Assembly: GCA_000004985.1 (NCBI GenBank) | Contig: GG738847.1 | Source: Naegleria gruberi | Taxonomy: Eukaryota | Reading direction: 5' to 3' (one strand) | DNA length: 64,000 bases | Shown: positions 3,043-61,813 of the stretch, in pieces | Layout: every line of letters starts with the position of its first letter | Numbering within the stretch: position 1 is the stretch's first letter | The notes under the pieces: model-generated | The model's input: only the letters and a program-made list of their open reading frames with translations | Databases searched by the model: none | What the model was told of the DNA's origin: nothing | Made by a program: the position numbers and the translations under genes

Positions 3043-3702
3043 TTAATTAGATGTTGGATTTACAAATAAATGCAACTTACAAGTAAGATTCCTCTTTTTC
3101 AACACAAAATAATTGAATTCTCCTTTTTGAAATATTGGTTTGAATTCGTAGAGAATCATTTCTTTACAAATTATATCCTTAATGGTTTCGACCAAATTAA
3201 AAGTTCTAAATGCCATTTCCAATTGTTTACAATCTTCCCACAAGTGAAAGAATTCAATTTCCACTTTTTTACCAATAATCACCAATCCAGAATATCCAAG
3301 AAAATCTGATGAAGAATCATGATGAGCTAATAATTGATTTATATTTTCCAAATCCTTTTGTGTATCATTATTAAATTTTGGCATTCTCTCAGCATGATTA
3401 GATATATTAGCAAATTGTTTGGAAACCAATTTTAATATTGGATCAATCAATTGATCATTAGAATGTTTCCTCCGCTGATAAATATTATTCAAATAAAACA
3501 TTACAAAGTGTTCCGAATTGATTACTGTGTACCAACTCTTACACACAAGGTATGGTTTGCAAATTTTCCAATCTGTTGCATGATTAGTGAACTGTAACAC
3601 GGTGGCAATCAAGAAATGATCCATTTTTTGATAATTGAATTCAGTTTTAAATAAGCTCATTCTTATAAATTTGTTTAACAATCTCCGAATTGTATACATC
3701 AA
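3043..3702 (-). CDS. Hypothetical protein (219-aa ORF) of unknown function.
   Basis: Long ORF. It ends in ...ACT T|GTAAGT TGC..., which looks like a donor site, but I could not find a frame-compatible acceptor within 60 nt. Confidence 0.4.
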   Translation of the reverse strand: MMYTIRRLLNKFIRMSLFKTEFNYQKMDHFLIATVLQFTNHATDWKICKPYLVCKSWYTVINSEHFVMFYLNNIYQRRKHSNDQLIDPILKLVSKQFANISNHAERMPKFNNDTQKDLENINQLLAHHDSSSDFLGYSGLVIIGKKVEIEFFHLWEDCKQLEMAFRTFNLVETIKDIICKEMILYEFKPIFQKGEFNYFVLKKRNLTCKLHLFVNPTSN

Positions 3703-4093
3703 TGGATGATGAATTAAATTCCTTCCAGAGTTGTTGTGTTCTTCAACATATTTTTTATCAAAGATTTGAAACTAGTTTTTTGATAAGAGGGAATTCTGTT
3801 CAATTAGAAAACAACCAAAAGATTCTAATTTAAAAAAAGGCCACATACCAAATCAACGCTTACCATCACCATAACAACAAAATAGATTCATGGAGGTTAC
3901 TTCCTCATAGGCTCCGATCATCACGTTAAAAGTAGTTTGAAACACGATTGGTCATTCATATTATTTAAAAAAACATCACCAAACGTGATCGTGAAAACAT
4001 CAAAAAGAATCGGAAGTGGTCATATTGAACAACATCTCTCTGATATTTCGATTACTGAAGTAATATTATTATTATTTAAAAAGAATAGAAAGA

Positions 4094-7000
4094 ATGGGAA
4101 ATTCACTAGCTAATGCCCTTCATCAAAAAGTTGTGCTAGAAGTATTGAAAAGATCTCCGATATGGGAATTGATTCATCCAATATCAGTGAATCAAATTAA
4201 GACTTCTCTACCAACACGTTTTGATGCTTCAGAAAACATTAATCCCAATAATTTTCATTATTACAAGATTGAGAATGTTACATTTAGAGTTGATGTATTG
4301 AATCGATTCTTGGCATGTTCTGTTAGGAATTTGGAAATAACTGAAGGATATATTGAGTACATTTCTATTAGAATACCACACATGTCTAATATGGTAAATA
4401 ATTTATCGAGTATTAGAGTGGCAGTATTTGGAGTTTTATTGAGTATTAAATGGGTGGATGAATTTACTGACTTGTCAAATTCCATGCTTCAATCATCTGT
4501 AATGTTACAATCAGTTTCGGATATGCTTACTTCTCAATGGTCTGATAGGAGTGATATTGGTGATGCTTCTCCAATGACAGAATTTGGTGAGGGAGAGGCT
4601 GTTTTATTCAGTGCAGTTGATGCTTTTATTTCCAAATTTTCAATCAATATTCAAAACGTGACAATTAATATTTCAATGCCTCAGAATCAAGTTATTAGTT
4701 TATTCATTCCTCAGGTGGTTTATTTTGATAATACCAATCACAGCTCTTCTAACAAGGTGTACAGTTATACTATGAATTTAAAGAATGGATTTATTATTCA
4801 ATCTGGAGACAAACCAATTACAACGGATATTGACATGAAGAACAATTTCATGTATGCCAATGGTATGATTTCTCTGACAGTTTCAGTTGATGTTCAAAAA
4901 TCAAAGATTAATCTATCAGTACAGTGTGACCAGGCGCATCTCGTTCTTTCACCTTCAAGAATTGAAATGATGCTGAGAATGTATGCCTTTATATTTGACA
5001 AGAAACAACACATCAAGAGAAAGCAGCAGTCAAAAATTAGAACAGAAGATGTTAAAACTGAAGAGAGATTCTATATGGATTTTAATTTTGAAGCTGGAAG
5101 GATACAGGGAATATTACTCTTCAAAGACCAACAGGATATTGATTGGAAATCAGAATTTGGAATGATTGAGCCTCAAAATATTACAGTTCCTCATGTTGTT
5201 TGTGTATTCAATGATATTGCAATGAGATACAAATCTGCCTTTGATGGCATTCTACACACTACAACATCAATTGATGTTGGCCAATTATTTATTGTGGATG
5301 AGCTTTCAAAAGTCAAAACCTCTGATGATACTGCTCTGCTACCACTCACACCAATAGAAAATGCCTTGATGGTTCACATTGGAGCTGTAATTGTGGATAT
5401 CAAATTGATCACTCTATTCAAAGAATCTATCAAATTGATCAGTAGAATTGTAAAGTTGCATCAATCTTTTGAGGAGAAGAATCCTCAAACTATAATTTAT
5501 CAGCCCTATCGAGATGAGAATGATGATGATCCAAACGATAATAAGGATCTCTCCACTATTATTCGAAAGACAGTTTCACCATTTGTAAATATTGAACTCA
5601 TAGAAATTGACATTCGATCAGAGGAGAGTAACACTGTACTATATGCTTCAATGTTTGGTCTTCAATCAGATAATAATTACAAGTTTGAGGTTACCTCTTC
5701 CAGTGTTCACCTTGCAGATGAAGATACAGATATACGAAGTGAAATCATCTCTCTCGCCGATATGAGCATTTCCTTGAGGGAGGACTCGGTAGAGATTGGA
5801 AACAAGAATACCAGAGCCTCAGGCTCTCTTAATCAATACCAATATCATATTTTAATGGGTATAACTAATGAGATTTTATCCATTCTCTCATCAAAAGATA
5901 TGGAACAACTTTCTAGCCCTTCACTCGAGGAGACAGACTCCTCTGAATTTTCAATACTATTTAATTTTAATGAATTGGAGGTGTTGCTCTCTGGTGAATT
6001 GTACAGTGTAATGCTTGCTTTGAGTTCTGTGAGTGGCCAATTCCAATTGGAAGGGAAGGATTCAAAGGCCATTGTCGATATTGGTAATTGTAAAGTTTCA
6101 GAAAGACTTGATGGAGTAGAGAATTGCATTATTAACAAATTCTCCAATCTTTTAAAGCCATTCACCAAACAAGATCAAGCAATCAAGGTAATCTTCCTTT
6201 CTAGCCCTTCAACAACCTTTGTAGATATTCAAACATGTGGACTTTGTATTGACTTTTCAATGGAAAATTTAAAGACCATTGAATTTTTAACAAGCTTTTT
6301 CAAAACCGAAGAGAGTGGTAGAGAAGAGTCCAATTCAATGGACCCTCCAAAAGCTATGAGTATTACTGTACAAAATGATCATACCATACTCAATTTCAAA
6401 TCACCAGATGCTTCCATTTACCTCTATCTCAATCATTTGAAAACGAAAATTTCTCAACAAAGTGATTGTAATTGTACTATATTGGCCTCCATTTATCCAA
6501 CCCTCTCGAGTGTGACTAAGAGAAATTTGATCAATATAGATTTGGAAACAGTGGAAGGATTTATTGGACCTCTCATAACTTCTTCAGATCTTTCTAAGCG
6601 AGCCACTGATAATAGTTCCATAGATTTTGGTTTTTCATCCATCATGAAAAAGAGCGGATTTTTCGAGTTATTATCAGTGGGTTGTGCAAACTTATTGATC
6701 AAAACCAAACCAGGTAGTTTTGAACTTGATAAGGTGAAACTCAGTAATTCTACTCTTCATTTCTACTTGTCCAAAACCACTTTGGCTACTCTGACAAGAA
6801 TAATATCCTCTTTGAATAAGCCAACCAGCTACAACAACTCTGGTAATTACATGATGGTTGAGGAGAGTGTAATGGAATCCATGTACTCAATTGCTTCATC
6901 TCAAGTTGATGATTACTTTATTGTTGATTCTGATGTGGAAAGTGTTGCAGACGATGATTATGAGGACTACAAGACAATGACCTTCTCTAAATTATTGCCC

Positions 7001-50000: not shown

Positions 50001-51230
50001 TTAAAAAGACAAGTCAATCTTTTTCGAGTAAAATTGTTTGTACCACCTTCTCAACTTCATCACTGGCCCATCACCCTTCACCAAACTCGGTGTTCTCTTA
50101 TAAATCTTATTCTCCCAAACTGTGATATCATTCTGCCACTGAGCTACCCAATTTCCCACAACATACCAAACTAATAGTCGAGGAATTTTCTTCTCTGCAT
50201 ACGCAACAAAGCCAACATCCAGATTTGTTTTGCTCTTTGGAGAATGTGTATGGAATAGATAGATTCTGCCAAAACTTCCATCAAATCTGAAAAGTGCAAT
50301 TCCTGCAGGACCAAATAATTCAATTCGAGCATTTACGGTCGTGGAGGTGAGTTTCTTACCGAAAATTTCGAGACATGCCTTGTTAGTAAAGTAGGCAATA
50401 TGAGGATCTGAATCTGAGAGTTTAAATTCTGCTTGATGTATAATTTGGACGAAAGGAACCTGAATTGAACGACCAAATATTGATCTAGGTCCACTCCATG
50501 GCAAAACCATTTGGCCATGCAAGGGTTGGAAATGTTGAAAATCTGCCGAGTTCTCAGCAAAATCTTGAATATTCATTCTAATATCTTCATATGAATAATT
50601 CCCAAAATGGTAAAATTTGTCCATGTCCAAATCTTGTGGATTCAACAATGGATACTGAGGTGGTAAACCTTCCTTCTCTGAATGGAACCACACCAAAATC
50701 ATACCATACTTCTCTTCACAATACCACGATCGAGTGTGAGCATTCTTTGGAATTGTTTCATTACAATTTTCTGAATGTTGACATGAGCTCTTGTCACAAT
50801 TATTTGGAATTTTGACACATTGACCATCTCTATCAAATTCCCATAAATGAAATGGACATTGAATGTTATTTCCAATAACCTTACCTTCCACTCCTAAATT
50901 ACTTCCCAAATGTGGACAATAAGCATCTAAAACTCCGACAGAACCATCAAATCCTCGAAACACAACCATGTCCTCGCCAAAGTAGTGGACAAGTTTGGAG
51001 CTACCTTTTGATAACTCATTTGAGAAACAAATTCTGAACCAACCGTTTGGAAACTGATCAATAAACGTACTTTCTCTAAATTTAGATGATGCATTTCTAT
51101 TCGATTCTGCTGAATGTTTTTGATCTTTCGTTTTGAAATCATACCACTTGTTGGCTATCAGGACTGCCAATAGTACAAGATTGAGAAGTAAACTAACTGC
51201 AATAAGCGTTTCAGTTTCAAAACTAAACAT
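50001..51230 (-). CDS. Rieske [2Fe-2S] non-haem iron oxygenase of the Neverland/DAF-36 (cholesterol 7-desaturase) family, with an N-terminal membrane anchor.
   Basis: Rieske motif CPHLGSNLGVEGKVIGNNIQCPFHLWEF. Mononuclear iron motif ENSADFQHFQPLH (compare Neverland ENAADIAHLAHLH). PNGWFRICFSNELSKG... aligns with Nvd PNGWFALLESRELKVG. N-terminal TM LIAVSLLLNLVLLAVLIA. Confidence 0.75.
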   Translation of the reverse strand: MFSFETETLIAVSLLLNLVLLAVLIANKWYDFKTKDQKHSAESNRNASSKFRESTFIDQFPNGWFRICFSNELSKGSSKLVHYFGEDMVVFRGFDGSVGVLDAYCPHLGSNLGVEGKVIGNNIQCPFHLWEFDRDGQCVKIPNNCDKSSCQHSENCNETIPKNAHTRSWYCEEKYGMILVWFHSEKEGLPPQYPLLNPQDLDMDKFYHFGNYSYEDIRMNIQDFAENSADFQHFQPLHGQMVLPWSGPRSIFGRSIQVPFVQIIHQAEFKLSDSDPHIAYFTNKACLEIFGKKLTSTTVNARIELFGPAGIALFRFDGSFGRIYLFHTHSPKSKTNLDVGFVAYAEKKIPRLLVWYVVGNWVAQWQNDITVWENKIYKRTPSLVKGDGPVMKLRRWYKQFYSKKIDLSF

Positions 51231-51878
51231 TTTTTTTAACTTTCTCAAATTGACTAGACGAAACTGATTGTACTCACGTGTTATTGAAGTGAAAATAGAG
51301 AAAGGATGCATTTAAATCATCTCTTTAGTCAATCGGAAGTGAGGAGGAAATCCTCAAACCCTATACACCCTCATTTGTCCATTCTCTAAAATTAAACCGC
51401 CAACAAGATCCTCGCTCAAATAAATTGGCCAATCAGCACAATCATTAGGAAGTCCGAATAATTTTGGAGGTAAAACTAACAATTAAAAACCTTATGCAAG
51501 CGAATCTCTGATACAAAATGTCCTTAATGAACCACATGCGTGTATTATATAAGGCACCAGCACAATTTCGCTACAAAAATTGCCACACCCTTAAATGAAA
51601 CTGTCTTTATAAAAGTATAGTGCACTGCCTTATTACTGTATAACTTCCTAAATCGTTCCTTGAATGATCCAGGAACAAATTGGAATGCGTGCCACTTTTT
51701 CTGAATTGTTCCAATGTTGTAGTTGTTTTAAAAAACATTAAAAAAACAGTGCAACGCCCAAACACCTCCAAATCTCCATCACAAAGACAATTGTTTGTTC
51801 TGTGTGTGTGAATCTCTTTTCTCAAAACCTCTATTCTCTGTTTTTTATACAAGAACAAGAATAAATACTCTTTATCAA

Positions 51879-52721: not shown

Positions 52722-53179
52722 TAAATCAAAATCCAAAAACAACAAATAAATTATTTTTCTCCGTAAGATATAATTAAGGTGTTTGGTTAGTTCGTTCCAT
52801 AATAATTCGATAGTCGCAGGAGATAATAAATAAGGTACCTTGGTGAATTATCTCTTCTCAACAATGAATAAGAAGTGAAAAGTGTTAAATATATTGATTC
52901 TTGGTTCCTTAAATCCAAACTTGGTATTGTAAATTTACAAAATACGATACGAATAAACGTGGCAGGTAGAGTGGAATATTTATTTCAGGAAAAGGCAACC
53001 AATCACAATCCTCCAACCTTTTTTAGTTCGAGAAAAATCCTTTTTGCAGCCAACTAAAAAAATTCTGTTGGCGAGAATTGCAATTAACAGAAACAACAAA
53101 AAAAACTTGTTCACAAGGTGCTCGGCTACACTTCAACAATTTTCATCATCTTTTGAAGTGGATACCTAAAATACAATAC

Positions 53180-56100
53180 ATGACAGCAGCTGTCAATAAT
53201 CGAAAGAAAATGAAGTGTTCAAATAAGAGACGACAACAGTTGACCACCACCATCATGATGTTCATGGTGATGGTGATTGGAATTATTTTACTCACCAAAA
53301 ATGTTCAAAGTTTATTACCACGATATAAAATTGAAGTGCTATCCGGAAATCCATACATGTCCACAGCACTCTATGATGGAATTATGGCCACAGATGCAAT
53401 TCTCAACCTTCCAAGAAACGTACTCCTCTACAATGATGAATTGTACATATCCGATACCTTTAATCACATGATTAGAAAGGTTTCGAAAAATGGAACACTC
53501 ACCACATTGGTAGGAGTTGGTGCTGCTGGTTCAAATGATGATGATGGTTTGCTTGGAATTGATACTCAACTAAACAATCCGAATGGTTTATCCATTTCTC
53601 CAAATGGTGAATTATTGTTTATTGCTGATACTGATAACAAATTGATTCGAGTTTTGAATATGAAAACAATGATTTGTAATGTATTTAAAATGTTTACATC
53701 GAGTGGGGTGTTAGATACCTTGACGAAACCAGTTGGTGTTTCCATTACAAGTAATTGGAATATTTACATAACCGATGACAAGTATGTGAAAAAGGTTAAT
53801 TATTATACAAGAGTAGTTACAATTATTGCAGGAGGTATGTTATATTGTTATTGTTTTTAATACGAAACTATTGAAATTTGTTTTTTTTTGTTCTGATTGA
53901 CTAAAAAGGTGGAAGTGGTAGTTATAAAGATAATGTCGTTCCAACAACCATTTCAATCACAAGTCCTAAACTCATTCATACCATTCCTTACACTCCTGAT
54001 TCTACTCTTGTAGTTTTTACTGATGCCACAACTGCTAAATTTATTATAGATACAGAAAGTTTACAATCAACCACAAAAACAGGACTTGTAGGAGGGTAAG
54101 TTTTAATCATCAATTTATTGAGTACTAGAGTAATATATTTTGAAAAATAGTTCAAATATTCCAGCAATTTTTCCATTTTCCACCACAACATTTTACTATT
54201 CTTTGGGAAATGGGATTTTTAACTTGGAAAGTGGAATTAATACTCCTAAATCTGCAACTACTGGTGGTGATGCTGGAAAGTATAGTGTAACTAATATGGC
54301 GTATTCTTATTTTAACACTTCTTATGGATTACATGGAAATAGTTCAGTGATTTATATTGCAGATTCGGCTAATTATTGTATTAGAAAGTATGATATTGCG
54401 AATAATTCTGTATCAACTGTTGCAGGTTTCAAATATCAACCTTCTTTTGAAGGAGTTTATGCTTTATCTGTTTATGCAGATTTGAAAATTCAAAAGTTAA
54501 CCGTGACCTACAAGGATGAAATTATTTATCTTGACACTAACAACAGAGTTAGAATGATTACAGCCAATGGAAGAATCAAAACACTCATTGGATCTGAGTA
54601 TACATCCAAATATCCAGTTTGTGTTTCAACATCTATTGCTTTGGAATGTAGGGCAACTAACGCGATTGATATTATGAGCGTTGGAGATTCTCTAATTCTC
54701 TCAACTTTAAAATTATTCAGTTATGATTTGGCAAGCATTTCAGGAACATCTACCATTACCCAACAAGGTACTGAACTAGTAGGTACTTTCTCTCTAAGAG
54801 CAATGAATGGCTCATCAGGTGCTGTCGTATATTTCCTAAATAATGCCAATCAATTGTTAAAAAAATCTTTAACTGGTTTGGAAACAGTTGTGAAAGGATC
54901 ATTATCTGCATCAGATTTCAATATTGTAAATATTGATACTGATTTCGCTAGAATTTGCTATATTGAGAGTGGAATTATCACTTGCTTTAATGAGACTGAT
55001 TTAAGTTCAATTGTTCTCCCAATGCCATCTGGAGAAACCAAGTTCACAAGCGTTGCACTCACTAGTACTACTGTCTATGCATCAACAAGTAATAGAATCT
55101 ATGCCTATTCAGTTTCTGATTATTCAACTGCTTACCTAATTGCAGGTTCAAAGCCAGTTAATGTGAATGGACAAACTTTTGATTATAGTGGGTACAACAG
55201 TGATTACATTTTGGCAACTAGTGCTATTTTGAGTGATATCAGTAATTTGCAAGTCTCTTCTTCTAATGGAAATATCTATTTTGTGAGTGGTGGTACTTTG
55301 ATTAGAAGAATTGCCAATGGATTTGTTTCTACAGTTGCTGGTATTTCACCTCTCCATACAGAAGGTATAACACCAATGGCAATTGCAAGAGATTCAGCTA
55401 AAAAGATCACCTATTTCATTGACAGTAATACACATGTTAAAATGATGGATGAAGCCAGTGGAATTATTAGTCCACTTACTTTACCAATTAAACCAAGTCC
55501 TGATCCACAAAATATTACATTACCATTAACATTTTTAAGAGCTCCACCAAAGAATGCAGGTCAATTATTGACTTATTCCTCCTATGATGGTTTATTATAT
55601 CTTGCAGATTATTGCAGAATTATTTCCATCAATGTTACATCTGCTTCATACAAGCTTGTAACTGGTACTGTGTGTGGAGATAGTGCTGACAATATTTTAG
55701 CAATCAATTCATTCATTCAAACACCAAGTTCCATGACAGTCGACTCTAAAACTGGAGATTTATACTTTACGTTTGGAACAAAGATTTTGAAAATTGAAAA
55801 GAAAACTGGTTTATTAACGACATTATATGGCAGTACTGGTAAAATTGGAACTGTTGTGAATGGAATAATTTCCAAAACTTCTCTCCTCACCAACATTACA
55901 AGTTTGGTCGTGTCTGATGATATTATTTACTTTGCAGATATTACTCGTAGCGTTAGACAAATAGCTCTATCAAACAGTAATTTGACAACTTTGGTTACCA
56001 TGGCTGCGGTCACTGAAAAGATGCTTTCAATTTCACTCGATAAGAATGGTGACATTTTCATTCTCGATACCTATACTTACTTAATTAGCAAGTACATTAA

Positions 56101-57656
56101 AAGTTCAGGTGGGGTCCCCAAAGAGGTAGCAGGAAAACAATTTGGTAAAGGATTCAATGGAAGATACAATGCTCAGGCAACGAATTCCAATTTGAGAAAT
56201 TTTATTTCCTCTGTCAACATTGACAATGGAATAATGTTTACTGAAATTGCAGATAAGACTGGTGGTCTCATTAGAAAAATAACAGCTCAATGTGATGGAA
56301 ATTCAACCCTGGACTCTAGTGGAGGTAGTTGTGTCTGTAATGATGGATACACTGGAGATTCTTGCAATGTATTCGTTTGTTATGGTTTAACTGCAACTAG
56401 TTCAGAAGTATGCTCAGGAAATGGATCGTGTATTGATGTGAATGTGTGTAAATGTAGGGATGGATTCGAAGGTTCCTCATGTAATATTGTTAAGGCTGCA
56501 AATGTCACAACAGGAGATTCATTGGGTGTGATTTTACCTGCTGTTCTCGTTCCAATATTGGTTATTTTGATTATTATTGTAATTATAATTGTAGTGGTAA
56601 TCATTGTGTTTGCCACAAAAAAGAAGAAGAAGAAGGATAAGGGATTGGAAGAAACCACAGATTTTGATGAAGTTCCAATGAGTGATTTGCCATCTGACAT
56701 GTCTGTCATTTTGAGTAGCAGTTTGACAAGAAGTGTTTCATCATCAACCAATGAAGAAGAAAATCTCTTTACAAGATATCAAGATATTGTCAAGATTGGA
56801 CAGGGAGCATTCGGTAGTGTTTTTAAAGTTAGAGATACCAAAGACGGAGACAAGATCAAAGCTGTTAAAGTTTTGAAATTTAATTCTGTCAGTGATTTGA
56901 ATATGATTATGAAAGAAGGTGCTCAATTAACAAACGCCAAACACAACCACATTCTCAAAGTCAATGATTATTTCATTACTAACGACAATTTACTTTGTAT
57001 TGATATGGACTATTATGAAAAGGGAGATTTGTCTCAATTTACCAAAACTGATTGTCCAGAACATATTGTAAAACAAATTCTCTATCAATTATGTGATGCT
57101 TTGAGTTATGTTCATGGAACTCTTTCCATGATTCACAGAGATATCAAGCCAACTAACATTTTTGTAAAGGAATATGATGGAACAAATGTCAGTGTCATTC
57201 TTGCTGATTTTGGTTTAGCCAAACAAGCTCAAGAATCAGCTGCAAATTCATATGCTGGTACTCCACTTTGTAAGTTTTTAATTTTCCTTTTTATTTACAA
57301 ATATTTCAATTAATTTTACAATTTTAATTTTTTTAATATTTCAATTGTTAATTAATAATATTTCAGATATGAGTCCTGAACTTGGATTAGGAGGAAAATA
57401 TTATCCAAACTCTGATACTTATTCACTAGGTGTTACAATTTATCAAATAATGACAAAGGACCTTACCACATCAATCAGTCACTTGTTGTTGAATGATCCA
57501 CAAAATGCTCAATCGAAATTGAGAGACAAGATGAAACAATCTAAACTGGGTTACTCAGATCAGCTTATTGACTTGATTATTAGAATGTTGGACAAGGACA
57601 GTTTAACTAGACCTAATGCTGCAGACATTCTTTCAGATTCGTATTTCAGAAGATAA
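53180..57656 (+). CDS. Single-pass receptor kinase: signal anchor, NHL-repeat beta-propeller-like ectodomain, EGF-like cysteine modules, a TM segment and a cytoplasmic NEK-like Ser/Thr kinase domain. Four exons: 53180-53834, 53909-54095, 54151-57269 and 57367-57656.
   Basis: NHL-like repeats (LYISDTFNHMIRKVSKNGTLTTLVG..., LLFIADTDNKLIRVLN, IYIADSANYCIRKYD...). EGF-like CVCNDGYTGDSCNVFVC...CSGNGSCIDVNVCKCRDGFEGSSCN. TM VLVPILVILIIIVIIIVVVIIVFA. Kinase YQDIVKIGQGAFGSVFKVRD...AVK...HRDIKPTNIFV...DFGLAK...GTPL|YMSPE (NEK-like GTPxYMSPE). All three introns have GTATGT/GTAAGT donors and were verified in frame. Confidence 0.75.
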
Positions 57657-57944: not shown

Positions 57945-59324
57945 ATGACTTCTATCGATTTGGAAATAATTGATGACCCAAAGTTGGTCAATTCATATCA
58001 TTCACATAAGAAACATAATCATAATGATCACCATCATTTGAATCACCATCACAAACACTCATGTCAAGAGGAGGAAGAAGAATTGCAACCTGTTGAATTG
58101 ACAACTACTCGTGTTAGATTGGACAATTCAACCTTGAGGAAGATCTATCTCTCAAAGAACAAACCATTATGGAAGGAAGCTGATTTTATCAAGATGATCA
58201 TAATGATTGCCATGATTTTTGTCATGTTTGGTGCTGAACTTTCTGTTGGTATCTTGGCTGCATCTTTAACACTTCTGGCCGATTCGTTCCATATGCTTTC
58301 AGATGGAATTTCTCTAATTGTTGGTGCAGCATGCATTTGGTTGGCTAAGAAGGGACCTACTGCAAATATGACCTTCGGTTTTGGAAGAGCTGAAACATTG
58401 GGTGGTTTAATTAATGCTGTGTTTTTGGTGAGTGTTGTGCTGTATGTGATAATGGAATCTATTCAGAGATTTTTCATGCCAGAGAGAATTGAGGATCCAA
58501 TACTTGTGTTGTGTGTTGGAGGTGCTGGTTTGTTGATTAACTTGATTGGTCTTTTTATGTTTTGTGGCCACCATCCTGGACATGACCATGATCATGGACA
58601 CGAACATGACCACAAACACTCAAAGGAAGAAGACCACCAACATGAATCTCATGAACACGATCATGAACATACTGACCCACAATCCAACAATTCTCAAAAG
58701 AAAGAACACAAAGAACACAAGCACAGATCTGAAAATATTTTTGGTGTTTTTTTACACATTTTGGGTGATTTTCTTGGCTCAGTTGCTGTCATGATTTCCT
58801 CTGGTCTCATTCTCATATTTGACCAAAAGGATGAGCAAGGCAATTATCCAAATACATGGGTTCTCTATGTTGACCCAGTTCTCAGTTTAGTAATGAGTGG
58901 AATCATCTTATTCACAGCTGTTCCACTATTGAAATCAACATGTAGAACCTTGTTGCAATCAGTTCCTACAGCAGTTGACATTCCTCAATTGAAAGCAAAT
59001 ATATTGGAAGTGGAGGGTGTAATTTCGTGTCATGAATTGCATGTTTGGCAACTTGCTGGAAAAACTAGCGTTGCAAGTGTTCACATTCTAACATCTGAAA
59101 GCAATGAAGAGTTTATGAGAATTGTTAAACGAGTACAACAGATATTCCACAAATTCAATGTTCATGCAACAACGATTCAACCAGAGTTTATTTCACTAAA
59201 TTCCATGCAAGGAAATGAATCTCAACCTTGTCATTTAATTTGCTCTCCGTCATGCTATGAACAATTTTGTTGTGCACCAAATCCAGTGGAAATGGATATT
59301 GTAGATCCATCCAATAAAGTTTAA
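57945..59324 (+). CDS. Cation diffusion facilitator (ZnT/SLC30-like) zinc transporter with a histidine-rich cytoplasmic loop.
   Basis: Six TM helices. CDF signature SLTLLADSFHMLSDGISLIVGA...FGFGRAETLGGLINAVFLV. His-rich loop HHPGHDHDHGHEHDHKHSKEEDHQHESHEHDHEH. Confidence 0.85.
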   Translation: MTSIDLEIIDDPKLVNSYHSHKKHNHNDHHHLNHHHKHSCQEEEEELQPVELTTTRVRLDNSTLRKIYLSKNKPLWKEADFIKMIIMIAMIFVMFGAELSVGILAASLTLLADSFHMLSDGISLIVGAACIWLAKKGPTANMTFGFGRAETLGGLINAVFLVSVVLYVIMESIQRFFMPERIEDPILVLCVGGAGLLINLIGLFMFCGHHPGHDHDHGHEHDHKHSKEEDHQHESHEHDHEHTDPQSNNSQKKEHKEHKHRSENIFGVFLHILGDFLGSVAVMISSGLILIFDQKDEQGNYPNTWVLYVDPVLSLVMSGIILFTAVPLLKSTCRTLLQSVPTAVDIPQLKANILEVEGVISCHELHVWQLAGKTSVASVHILTSESNEEFMRIVKRVQQIFHKFNVHATTIQPEFISLNSMQGNESQPCHLICSPSCYEQFCCAPNPVEMDIVDPSNKV

Positions 59325-59335
59325 TAGCCCTTTAT

Positions 59336-60530
59336 TTAATTAAAAACTTCCCAAATTGGCCTCAATGATTTGTATGGAATTGCAAATGGAATCTCAATGA
59401 ATCCTCTAAAGATCTTCATCACATCTAATCCTGCCAACACACCAATAATTGCACCAATTTCTCCCAAAGCAGATTCAAGCGTAACAGAATGAATCTCTTC
59501 AATTTCATACTGATTCAGTGTTGCATACGCAAATGAAACTACAATGATATCTTCCTCATGTTCAGTCAATCCAATTGCTGCCAAAGAGGCTCTCTGAAAA
59601 CAATCATTAATCCAATAAATCCTATTTAACAATACTTACCCATCTCATTTCTTCTCTTGTGGAGGAACTGCTACTAGTTTCGCTAGTGCTACTTCCTTCC
59701 CCAGAAGATTTAATTGATTGAGCTTTTCTTGCTGATATACTTTCAACAGTTCCAGAGCTACCTGATTGGTGACTGTCCAAATACTTGGTATGATACTTTG
59801 TCAAAATGAAAAAATTATCAACTCCAGCCATTGCAAAATTACTTTCCGAAACTACATCAGGAACTGTTCCTTGTTTGTGAAATGAAACTTGTAATCCGTA
59901 TCTAAAATAAAGATTGTTTGGCATCTTGGGAACTTTGAAAAAGAGTGAATAGGAAGCTCCATATCCAGTCAAGGAAGCTTCTGGAAGTGGATGATGGGTA
60001 TCATTATTAATAACAATGCAATGAAAACTATCAATCACTGCCGAATCGTAATGCATTTCAAAGTCTATGATAGATCCATTTTCTAAAACTCTTGTAGTAT
60101 GTTCCAATGTGAGGTTACAAGTATCACAATGCTTCAAAGCATTATAATTACAAATAGTAATTGCAGGAAAAGCCATCGGAATGTGTTCAACCAATGAAAG
60201 TGAAGTCACAGGATTATGTAAGGCATGAAGGTAGTGAGTTGCCACATCATATATAAACCAAATTGTGAAGGATATCGCAGCAATCCAACAAACAAATATT
60301 ATTAATTCCTGATATCTAATTCCGAAAGGTAATTTAGGAAATCCAAAATCATTCTTTTCAAATCTCTTTTTCTTCAGTGTTTTCGAATCCACTTCTCCGT
60401 CATGATTTAATGGAACAACCTTGTTAGTATTTATTGAAGCTGTCTTTTTAGCCTCTTCTTGTTGTTTGCTTTTTGATGATGCCGTAGGAATTTGATGTTG
60501 CTGCTGTTGATCCCCCACCACAGCTGCCAT
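59336..60530 (-). CDS. Two-TM channel-like protein with DEG/ENaC (ASIC/degenerin) family hallmarks. It lacks the Cys-rich thumb and has GLD in place of the GAS filter. Two exons (60530-59640 and 59593-59336, minus strand), with a 46-nt GTAAGT...TTTCAG intron in phase 0.
   Basis: TM1 LIIFVCWIAAISFTIWFIY. Post-TM1 motif AFPAITICNYN (compare ASIC FPAVTLCNLN). Palm strand RYGLQVSFHKQGTVPDVVSESNFAMAGVDNFFIL (compare [34 protein letters not shown]). Pre-TM2 VVSFAYATLNQYEIEE. TM2 LGEIGAIIGVLAGLDVMKIF (compare [21 protein letters not shown]). Confidence 0.65.
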
Positions 60531-60707
60531 TATTATTTCTTTTTTGTTATTTTTGAGCCAAAATCTACAGTTAACGGTTATTAAGGTTTATAAGGGCAAT
60601 TTCGCTACGTTTTAACGCCATGTACTTTACATGTTCACAAACCAAGTTGTTGGTATTCATATGTTTATACTATGCTCATCACGAGTGCGGATTTTTGAAA
60701 AGAAAAA
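60531..60707. promoter_or_regulatory. Shared 177-bp divergent promoter region between the two ENaC-like paralogs.
   Basis: Start codons at 60530 (-) and 60708 (+) face away from each other. The spacer is short and AT-rich. Confidence 0.5.
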
Positions 60708-61813
60708 ATGTCTAATATTCATCAAGGTGTGGAATTAAAAGAAGTGGGAGCTACAGCTCTTGCAAAGGAAGAGACTGTTATTAAGGTATTGAGGATTTCA
60801 AATTCGGAAGAACAACACAAGGAAGAGGAAAAACCAAAAAGAAAAACTATTGTGCATCATCATCATGGCGATTATGAGGAAGGAGAAGAATCGGAAGCAG
60901 ATTGCTTACACTCTAAAATAGGATACTCCATTAAGGATTTAATTTTAGTGTGTATTTGGTTTATATTATTAGGGTTTTATATATGGTATCTTGTTGAATT
61001 GGCAATTTCCTTAGATGAGGAACTGAATAATCCAACAACATCAATCTCCTTTGTTGAGAAGATTCCCAAGGATTTACCTCAAGTCACAGTGTGTAATTGG
61101 AATTCATTTGAAGGTTGTGGAGGGCAGTGTAATTTAACTCTAGTTGATTGTTCGCAAGTTGACTCGGAAGGTACTCCCATCCCTTGTGTAAATCATCCTC
61201 GTTATGTTCAATATGAACAGAATGGTAATACTTTTTACTGTTATCAATATAATTATGATGAGAAGCATCCTATTCAAGTTAAGAGTACTGGTTATGAGGG
61301 AAGTGTTTCATTGTACTTTAATTTCCCAACAATGCCTCAAACTGAGACCAATAGAAATGGCCTACAGGTGACATTTAACAAGATTGGCCATGAACCAAAT
61401 GTTTTGGATGAAACCAATTATGCCTATGAGAATGTAGATAATTTCTATGTCATGACTCACGTTGTTGTTGAAACCTTGGCTAAGAATGATAATCATCAAC
61501 CTGAATATTGGGATTTATCCTATTCTAGAATTGGAACTGCCACGGAAAATGTGACAGTGGTATCATTCTGTTATGCTACCTTGAATATCAATGATGTTAA
61601 GGAAGTTCAAACTGTAACAAATATTGAAATTTTTGCCAAAGTTTGTGAAATGTTATTAATCTTAGTGGTAAGTTGTTGGTGTAACAAATACTTTGTCTCA
61701 TTAATATATAATCAAAGGGAATTGATTTTATCAAAGTTATAAGAGGAATTGTGCTCATCCCAGAAGCAATCAAATATAGAGAATTCAAGGAAATCTTTGA
61801 AACTTTCATCTAA
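60708..61813 (+). CDS. Paralog of the adjacent DEG/ENaC-like two-TM protein. Two exons (60708-61667 and 61718-61813), with a 50-nt GTAAGT...AAAG intron inside TM2.
   Basis: HG-containing N-terminus (HHHHGDYEEG). TM1 LILVCIWFILLGFYIWYLV. DLPQVTVCNWN. RNGLQVTFNKIGHEPNVLDETNYAYENVDNFYVM. VVSFCYATLNINDVKEVQ. TM2 split by the intron as MLLILV|GIDFIKVIRGIVLIPEAIKYREF. The C-terminus matches its paralog (GLDVMKIFRGFIEIPFAIPYKSL). Confidence 0.65.

Follow-up and report, generated by a model that had tools for sequence, protein, structure and literature searches.

A head-to-head gene pair in Naegleria gruberi encodes two putative channel subunits of a protist DEG/ENaC clade reduced to the common core

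Gene structure of the divergent pair

Two paralogous genes, here named A and B, lie head-to-head at 59336–61813 of a 64,000-nt stretch of Naegleria gruberi contig GG738847.1 (the window, to whose positions all coordinates below refer). Their start codons are 177 bp apart and, according to the open reading frame (ORF) listing and translation, each product has two transmembrane segments (TM1 and TM2). The features of the pair are listed below.

Gene A, minus strand: exon 1 60530..59640, exon 2 59593..59336; 382 aa, single intron
Gene A exon 1, 59640..60530, minus strand: residues 1–297, with the presumed cytosolic N-terminus, TM1, FPAITICNYN, the beta core and a Ser-rich linker at the place of the ASIC thumb
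Gene A TM1, about 60237–60308, minus strand
Gene A FPAITICNYN motif, 60141–60170, minus strand
Gene A intron, 59594..59639, minus strand: 46 nt, GTAAGT...CAG, phase 0, after ...EEMRW
Gene A exon 2, 59336..59593, minus strand: residues 298–382 and stop, with beta10–beta12, the pre-TM2 motif LNQYEIEE, TM2 and the C-terminal tail
Gene A TM2, about 59405–59467, minus strand
Gene A G352-L353-D354, 59423..59431, minus strand: at the position of the ASIC G-A-S selectivity belt, followed by K357 and R360
A/B spacer, 60531..60707, no strand: 177 bp between the start codons, presumed shared bidirectional promoter region
Gene B, plus strand: exon 1 60708..61667, exon 2 61718..61813; 351 aa, single intron
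Gene B exon 1, 60708..61667, plus strand: residues 1–320, with the N-terminus, TM1, PQVTVCNWN, the whole beta ectodomain and the first half of TM2
Gene B TM1, about 60933–61016, plus strand
Gene B PQVTVCNWN motif, 61077–61103, plus strand
Gene B intron, 61668..61717, plus strand: 50 nt, GTAAGT...AAG, phase 0, within TM2 directly before G-I-D
Gene B exon 2, 61718..61813, plus strand: residues 321–351 and stop, starting with G-I-D-F-I-K, then the second half of TM2 and the C-terminal tail
Gene B G-I-D, 61718–61726, plus strand

A sequence-only reading of this DNA had described the pair as thumb-less DEG/ENaC-like channels with an acidic filter. Its coordinates, its 46- and 50-nt introns and its 177-bp spacing were all reproduced exactly by the ORFs and the spliced translations, and the motifs it quoted are found in the proteins (FPAITICNYN, PQVTVCNWN, GLQVSFH...GVDNFFIL, LNQYEIEE...LGEIGAIIG, G-L-D and G-I-D). 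The two products are 32% identical over 318 residues (BLASTP, E 8e-54), far beyond chance. Each contains two hydrophobic segments, at residues 69–98 and 333–365 in A and at residues 69–103 and 302–338 in B, and the ectodomain measures ~240 aa in A, of which ~45 aa form a Ser-rich linker, and ~200 aa in B. As in the rest of the family, both termini of A and B are probably cytosolic.

Splicing and selection

Both predicted introns are confirmed by intron-less metagenomic homologues that bridge the splice sites. P0003 is intron-less across the gene A splice site, where it reads ...IETRWESSLSVVEL... in continuous alignment with gene A exon 2, while P0002, P0004 and P0014 read '...RW|VS', that is, they read through into an intron at the gene A intron position. 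For gene B, the full-length, intron-less B-type homologue P0013 reads ...FLILLGIDFIKIVRG straight across the splice site, and its C-terminus is 74% identical to gene B exon 2. In a paralogue on the metagenomic contig L003, an intron of 38 nt occupies the position of the gene B intron. The proposed splice models of both genes have independent support, which for gene A also includes polymorphism between strains.

This polymorphism comes from L001, a contig of a second N. gruberi strain with 98.87% DNA identity. Gene A differs between L001 and the window at 16 positions, 13 of them synonymous and three non-synonymous (P ~2e-6 against a crude expectation of 24% synonymous). Exon 1 accounts for seven synonymous and three non-synonymous differences, and in exon 2 all six substitutions are synonymous in the proposed frame. 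Based on these 13 versus three differences, and on intron positions that are kept or resolved by homologues, the genes are real and under purifying selection. That A and B are decaying copies is one form of a very improbable alternative, of which the other form, a function other than that of a channel, is taken up with TM2 below; decay is at odds with the excess of synonymous differences in gene A, with the intact reading frames and with splice sites kept across species.

Membership of the DEG/ENaC family

Pfam ASC (PF00858) represents the ASIC/ENaC/degenerin superfamily and has a gathering score of 23.6 bits. The hidden Markov model search against it, by which the sequence-only reading had proposed to check the assignment, is significant for gene A, whose whole protein scores 52.9 bits (E 4e-14). 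All eight relatives that were tested lie above the threshold, and all 41 short full-length relatives match ASC, with a best E of 3e-22. When gene A was compared with PDB sequences by phmmer, ASIC1 was found at E 2.8e-4, with LGEIGAIIGVLAGLDVMKIF aligned so that G-L-D sits on G-A-S. A profile of the clade built from 41 sequences reaches ASIC5 (3.5e-17), FaNaC (8e-15), ASIC1 (~1e-14) and ENaC alpha (4e-12) in the PDB, where the first unrelated sequence appears at E 0.06. Gene B is tied to the family by its similarity to A (E 8e-54), by its homologue P0013 (25.7 bits on ASC) and by its fold.

Core-only architecture and fold

The matches to Pfam ASC cover profile positions 22–86, 149–269 and 366–447 of 455 and skip positions ~90–149 and ~269–366. 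Between anchors aligned to ASIC1, the finger region comprises 60 residues in A versus 126 in ASIC1, and the region of thumb and knuckle comprises 75 versus 136. Of these 75 residues, ~45 belong to the Ser-rich low-complexity linker, and B has a loop of ~10 residues there. The only conserved ectodomain cysteines are C127, C135, C138 and C171.

Monomer models of P0013 and of gene B exon 1 were computed with AlphaFold2 from a 12-sequence alignment. The P0013 model has a mean predicted local distance difference test score (pLDDT) of 74.7, with most of the ectodomain at 82–94, and the gene B exon 1 model has a mean pLDDT of 69.8. Both show a long helix at each end and ~12 strands between, and the only helices of the ectodomain are four to five residues long. 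Based on the skipped Pfam positions, the shortened segments and these helix-free models, finger, thumb and knuckle are all absent. The description of the proteins as thumb-less was therefore right and understated, in that finger and knuckle are missing as well.

A Foldseek search with the P0013 model returned PAC/ASOR chains first (E 2e-13, TMt 0.60–0.65), with ASIC1 close behind, so that the structural comparison recovers an ASIC/PAC-type core of palm and beta-ball. A different topology such as that of P2X, which the sequence-only reading had named as an outcome that would speak against it, was not encountered: the models are 12-strand beta cores, and no P2X structure with its type of ectodomain is among the Foldseek matches. 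A beta domain lacking finger, thumb and knuckle is the core common to ASIC, ENaC and PAC (Deng et al., PMC7904269).

Proteins of subtype A (A, P0002, P0003 and P0014) carry a Ser/Thr-rich linker of variable length at the place of the ASIC thumb, which in gene A spans window positions 59640–59790 (residues about 250–295). This linker might be a mucin-like, O-glycosylated stretch.

The TM2 pore motif

In HMMER alignments to ASIC1, ASIC2 and ASIC5, the G-L-D of gene A falls on G-A-S; exon 2 of gene A, which encodes it, aligns with beta12 and TM2 of ASIC. The replacement of G-A-S by G-[LI]-D, predicted from the two window genes, is thereby borne out by alignment and is moreover a hallmark of the whole clade, in which hmmalign gives G-[LIVM]-D-x-[LIV]-K, in many cases with x-x-R-G after it. 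Among 54 near-full-length short representatives, 34 have G-x-D-x-x-K and at least 39 have G-x-D, and in a few the Asp is replaced by Glu, Asn, Ser or Gly. The canonical long proteins in the clade alignment mostly have G-x-S; relative to this metazoan DEG/ENaC motif, A and B keep the Gly and replace Ser with Asp. Asp substitutions of ENaC alpha-S589, among others, reportedly open the filter to K+ and divalent ions, according to work by Kellenberger and colleagues from 1999.

Positions aligned with ASIC1 T448 and E451 are Lys and Arg in the clade. The suggestion that this might be a Ca2+- or proton-related channel is complicated by this conserved Lys and Arg just below the Asp.

Conservation across the clade is highest in TM2, where it extends to the Gly, Asp and Lys within the membrane. 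This is hard to explain for a mere anchor and argues against the other form of the alternative introduced above, in which two-pass membrane proteins reuse the beta core for adhesion, sensing or trafficking; like decay, such a function is very improbable.

Relation to PAC/TMEM206

The likeness of the vertebrate proton-activated chloride channel PAC (also ASOR or TMEM206) to ASIC and ENaC has been called 'structural convergence', without discernible sequence homology (PMC7904269), and TMEM206 was found to have no homologues outside deuterostomes (Ullrich 2019, PMC6663466). In the same PDB search as above, the clade profile reaches Xenopus ASOR (2.5e-10), bovine TMEM206 (5.7e-8) and human PAC (1.6e-7), a similarity that is weak but significant. 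An alignment of the clade with PAC by hhalign has a probability of 85.7% and an E of 5.5e-6 over 251 columns, from before TM1 to TM2. The profile match consists of two co-linear parts. The first, which carries most of the score, aligns TM1 and 'KHPVMSVSYKEV..APGI' of PAC with 'NP.TS.S..E..P..FPAV' of the clade, and the second is a weak stretch over beta9–beta12. At the level of the Pfam models, none of 41 clade members matches TMEM206 (PF15122) at E<=1, and human PAC does not match ASC at E<=10. The human PAC query reproduced the score and coordinates of the PDB search exactly and scored 564 bits on Pfam TMEM206, and we take it to be correct. These comparisons are suggestive of a clade that by sequence is DEG/ENaC, yet nearer to PAC than the canonical family is.

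Anion selectivity of PAC depends on a Lys in TM2. A and B could work as PAC/ASOR does, as a trimeric and possibly acid-activated anion channel in which the TM2 Lys and Arg set anion selectivity and the Asp serves as a structural salt-bridge partner. The two groups share a length of ~350 aa, a nearly core-only, 12-stranded beta domain between two TM helices and basic residues in the inner half of TM2. However, the clade has the DEG/ENaC glycine pattern in TM2, whereas PAC has no such pattern, and PAC has a helix-turn-helix insertion (PMC7904269), whereas the clade models show helices of four to five residues only. The distributions differ as well: PAC, which lacks paralogues, has been reported only from vertebrates and one hemichordate (PMC6663466), whereas the A/B clade is protist and has many paralogues. 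We consider a PAC-like mode of working distinctly unlikely.

Breadth and origin of the protist clade

Searched with a profile, 1.84 billion cluster representatives yielded 438 clusters at E<=1e-3, of which 106 reach E<=1e-10 and 59 reach E<=1e-30. Many of the matched clusters are 300–400 aa long and match end-to-end, and canonical proteins of 450–700 aa rank lower and are matched in two to three pieces. Named members include FDP41_006661 of N. fowleri (350 aa), EFC47565/D2V6F8, EFC39296/D2VVE1, P0010 and P0012 of N. gruberi, and PRP82860 of the amoebozoan Planoprotostelium fungivorum. N. gruberi has at least seven paralogues. In a neighbour-joining (NJ) tree, P0003 and P0014 cluster with A, and P0013 and P0022 with B.

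Several of the annotated N. gruberi paralogue models, which lie on other scaffolds, appear faulty. P0010 (492 aa) is a fusion of two tandem family genes in which the end of TM2 is missing, P0012 lacks part of TM1, and in P0026 (EFC39296, 1563 aa) the channel domain occupies residues 1370–1563 only.

The head-to-head arrangement of A and B is kept only in L001 (the 99% strain; spacer 177 bp) and in L005 (a species with a 69% identical A orthologue; spacer 95 bp), and the spacer sequence shows no convincing conservation between the window and L005. A tandem pair on L003 was considered as another instance of the conserved A/B pair and rejected, as the NJ tree assigns its genes to the subtypes of P0012 and of P0020 from N. 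fowleri. This contig (JGI 3300002220, from an oil-sands tailings pond metagenome) carries the two tandem family genes at 3674–6147, with introns of 38 and 40 nt, flanked by a glutamine synthetase/SET-domain pair and a pseudouridine synthase; its GC content is 39% and its source is presumably a heterolobosean-like amoeba.

The short form could be a secondary reduction, in which a canonical DEG/ENaC gene, possibly acquired laterally from an animal or protist, lost finger, thumb and knuckle in amoeboid lineages. DEG/ENaC has a patchy known distribution outside animals, where lateral transfer has been suggested (Elkhatib 2023, PMC10507113), and the variable Ser/Thr-rich linker of subtype A could be a remnant of a deletion at the place of the thumb. 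We nevertheless judge this history unlikely. The clade is large and deep by the cluster counts given above, with many old paralogue subtypes, and it occurs in both Discoba (Naegleria) and Amoebozoa (Planoprotostelium). Its profile extends to PAC, unlike that of canonical ASC, which would be expected of a core-only form near the common ancestor. A scan of GTDB genomes with two clade motifs gave no confirmed match and hence no prokaryotic source. If the short form is a secondary reduction, the clade says little on the origin of the family.

A further reading, to which we give somewhat less than even odds, is that the short clade is the missing sequence link between DEG/ENaC and PAC. The two families would then be homologous and not convergent, descending from a core-only ancestor in early eukaryotes (Discoba and Amoebozoa) that had two TM helices and a 12-stranded beta domain, and animals would later have added finger, thumb and knuckle. 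If this hypothesis is correct, the G-x-D-x-x-K pore would be an ancestral-type filter, for cations or for anions.

Proposed working of A and B

We put at roughly 80% the probability that A and B are two subunit types of a protist DEG/ENaC clade reduced to the common core, which likely form a trimeric, non-voltage-gated, TM2-lined pore with a G-[LI]-D ring. Of this picture, the gene structures, the paralogy, purifying selection, the family membership of A, the fold of B, the lack of peripheral domains and the conserved motif are shown, whereas trimers, channel activity, co-assembly of A and B, ion selectivity and the stimulus for gating are inferred. Each reduced protein would comprise a cytosolic N-terminus, TM1, a 12-stranded ectodomain of palm and beta-ball, TM2 and a short cytosolic tail. 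As all solved relatives do, the subunits most likely assemble as trimers, either homomeric or A/B heteromeric, around a pore that would be lined by TM2 and not be gated by voltage. Three Asp residues would form a ring at the level of G-A-S, with the conserved Lys three and the Arg six residues further in. Such a ring speaks for a cation pathway without Na+ selectivity, which divalent ions may permeate or block; alternatively, Asp and Lys, three residues apart, may pair as a salt bridge. As thumb and finger are missing, the proteins have no ASIC-type acidic pocket, and gating therefore cannot be ASIC-like. Candidates for gating include pH sensed by other residues, osmotic or mechanical stress, and constitutive activity.

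Several observations weigh against this proposal. The assignment of both proteins to DEG/ENaC stands for A on its own score and for B through fold and paralogy, but not for B taken alone, which has no whole-protein match to Pfam ASC and whose N-terminal fragment, at 18.2 bits, falls below 23.6. Gene B also lacks the LG[DE]IGG part of TM2 but keeps G-I-D-F-I-K; in view of this loss and of the conserved divergent pairing, an A/B heteromer is plausible. A and B also lack the HG motif, which in ASIC lines the lower pore. An 'HG-type N-terminus' had been read into both proteins; at the aligned position A has F-G, B and P0013 have I-G, P0012 and L003g1 have T-G, and L003g2 has C-R, such that the Gly is semi-conserved and the His is never conserved. 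The HHHHG run of gene B lies upstream of the aligned position and is not kept in P0013. Lys and Arg at the positions of T448 and E451 are unlike a cation-selective lower pore and recall the pore Lys of the anion channel PAC. The structural models, with mean pLDDT of 70–75 from an alignment of 12 sequences, come from a predictor that had seen ASIC structures. Finally, A and B probably have no gene model in the deposited N. gruberi annotation, as detailed below.

Annotation status and neighbouring genes

Three ORFs flanking the pair in the window are identical to proteins of N. gruberi NEG-M, namely EFC49632 (SLC30), EFC49620 (Atg2-like) and EFC49834 (F-box). The protein collection that holds these neighbours contains no N. 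gruberi entry for A or B according to three homologue searches and an exhaustive HMMER search, in which the nearest entries were metagenomic ORFs; we infer that annotation pipelines did not call either gene. Metagenomic P0001 is 99% identical to gene A, and P0064 is 94% identical to part of gene B. Before the low-complexity N-terminus and the Ser-rich linker were removed from the query, four metagenomic matches were all that was found; after their removal, the N. gruberi paralogues and the full-length homologues appeared. In practical terms, A and B appear to be without N. gruberi gene models, and several models of their paralogues are fused or truncated.

At 57945–59324 (plus strand) lies an SLC30/ZnT zinc-transporter gene with a Cation_efflux domain and His-rich loops. 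Its end and the stop codon of gene A, which is on the other strand, are 11 bp apart. The 3' ends of the two genes must therefore overlap or abut, which is typical of a very compact genome. A gene at 53078–57310 (plus strand) encodes a receptor-like protein kinase whose kinase domain is preceded by teneurin-type NHL and EGF domains; an adjoining ORF that contains NHL repeats may belong to this gene as an upstream exon. The product of the ORF at 50004–51311 (minus strand) is a Rieske [2Fe-2S] oxygenase whose C-terminal domain is KshA-like (3-ketosteroid 9-alpha-hydroxylase type), a domain architecture better known from bacteria.

Comparison with known systems

DEG/ENaC channels are usually regarded as an animal invention. 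Studer and colleagues are said to have described an ENaC/degenerin homologue in N. gruberi in 2011 (Physiol Genomics 43:844). The bare existence of such genes in Naegleria is not new, because N. gruberi paralogues already carry a PF00858 tag in public data. In the literature searched, we found no account of the core-only architecture, the G-x-D-x-x-K pore, the breadth of the clade, the unannotated A/B pair or the profile link to PAC. The phylogenies of DEG/ENaC published in 2023 include only heterokont and filasterean-related exceptions outside animals (PMC9822975, PMC10507113). One of them, a BLASTp survey that included Discoba and Amoebozoa, listed no candidates from either group; its candidates come solely from holozoans, an alveolate and a stramenopile (Elkhatib 2023, PMC10507113), and no DEG/ENaC was found in pathogenic protozoa (Prole and Taylor 2013, PMC3681921).

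A deep, paralogue-rich protist clade that has only the shared core, scores as ASC and reaches PAC makes the origin of both families testable. It also offers a natural experiment, both on the gating that a bare beta core allows and on the selectivity of a pore with Asp, Lys and Arg.

Non-metazoan homologues described earlier (from Cafeteria, a Symbiodinium species, dinoflagellates and Tunicaraptor) are, like A and B, DEG/ENaC proteins outside animals (PMC10507113, PMC9822975). They were found by BLASTp with animal queries and cluster with metazoan ASIC/ENaC sub-clusters, a description that sets the A/B clade apart from them. The metazoan DEG/ENaC proteins themselves (ASIC1–5, ENaC alpha/beta/gamma/delta, FaNaC and degenerins) are 450–700 aa long, whereas those of the A/B clade have 300–400 aa. 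The metazoan ectodomain of ~360 aa has finger, thumb and knuckle helices and a Cys-rich thumb; A and B have none of these, an ectodomain of 200–240 aa and three to four conserved cysteines. Even the recently solved short metazoan channels of DEG/ENaC type, PDPNaC1 (9jf7) and BRTNaC1 (8ymr), are longer, and their identity to the model is lower (10–11%). The annotated paralogues of N. gruberi and N. fowleri are named only 'predicted protein' or 'hypothetical protein' and carry a precomputed PF00858 tag. They belong to subtypes other than those of A and B, and share with them the clade, the architecture, the motif G-[LI]-D-x-x-K and 33–41% identity.

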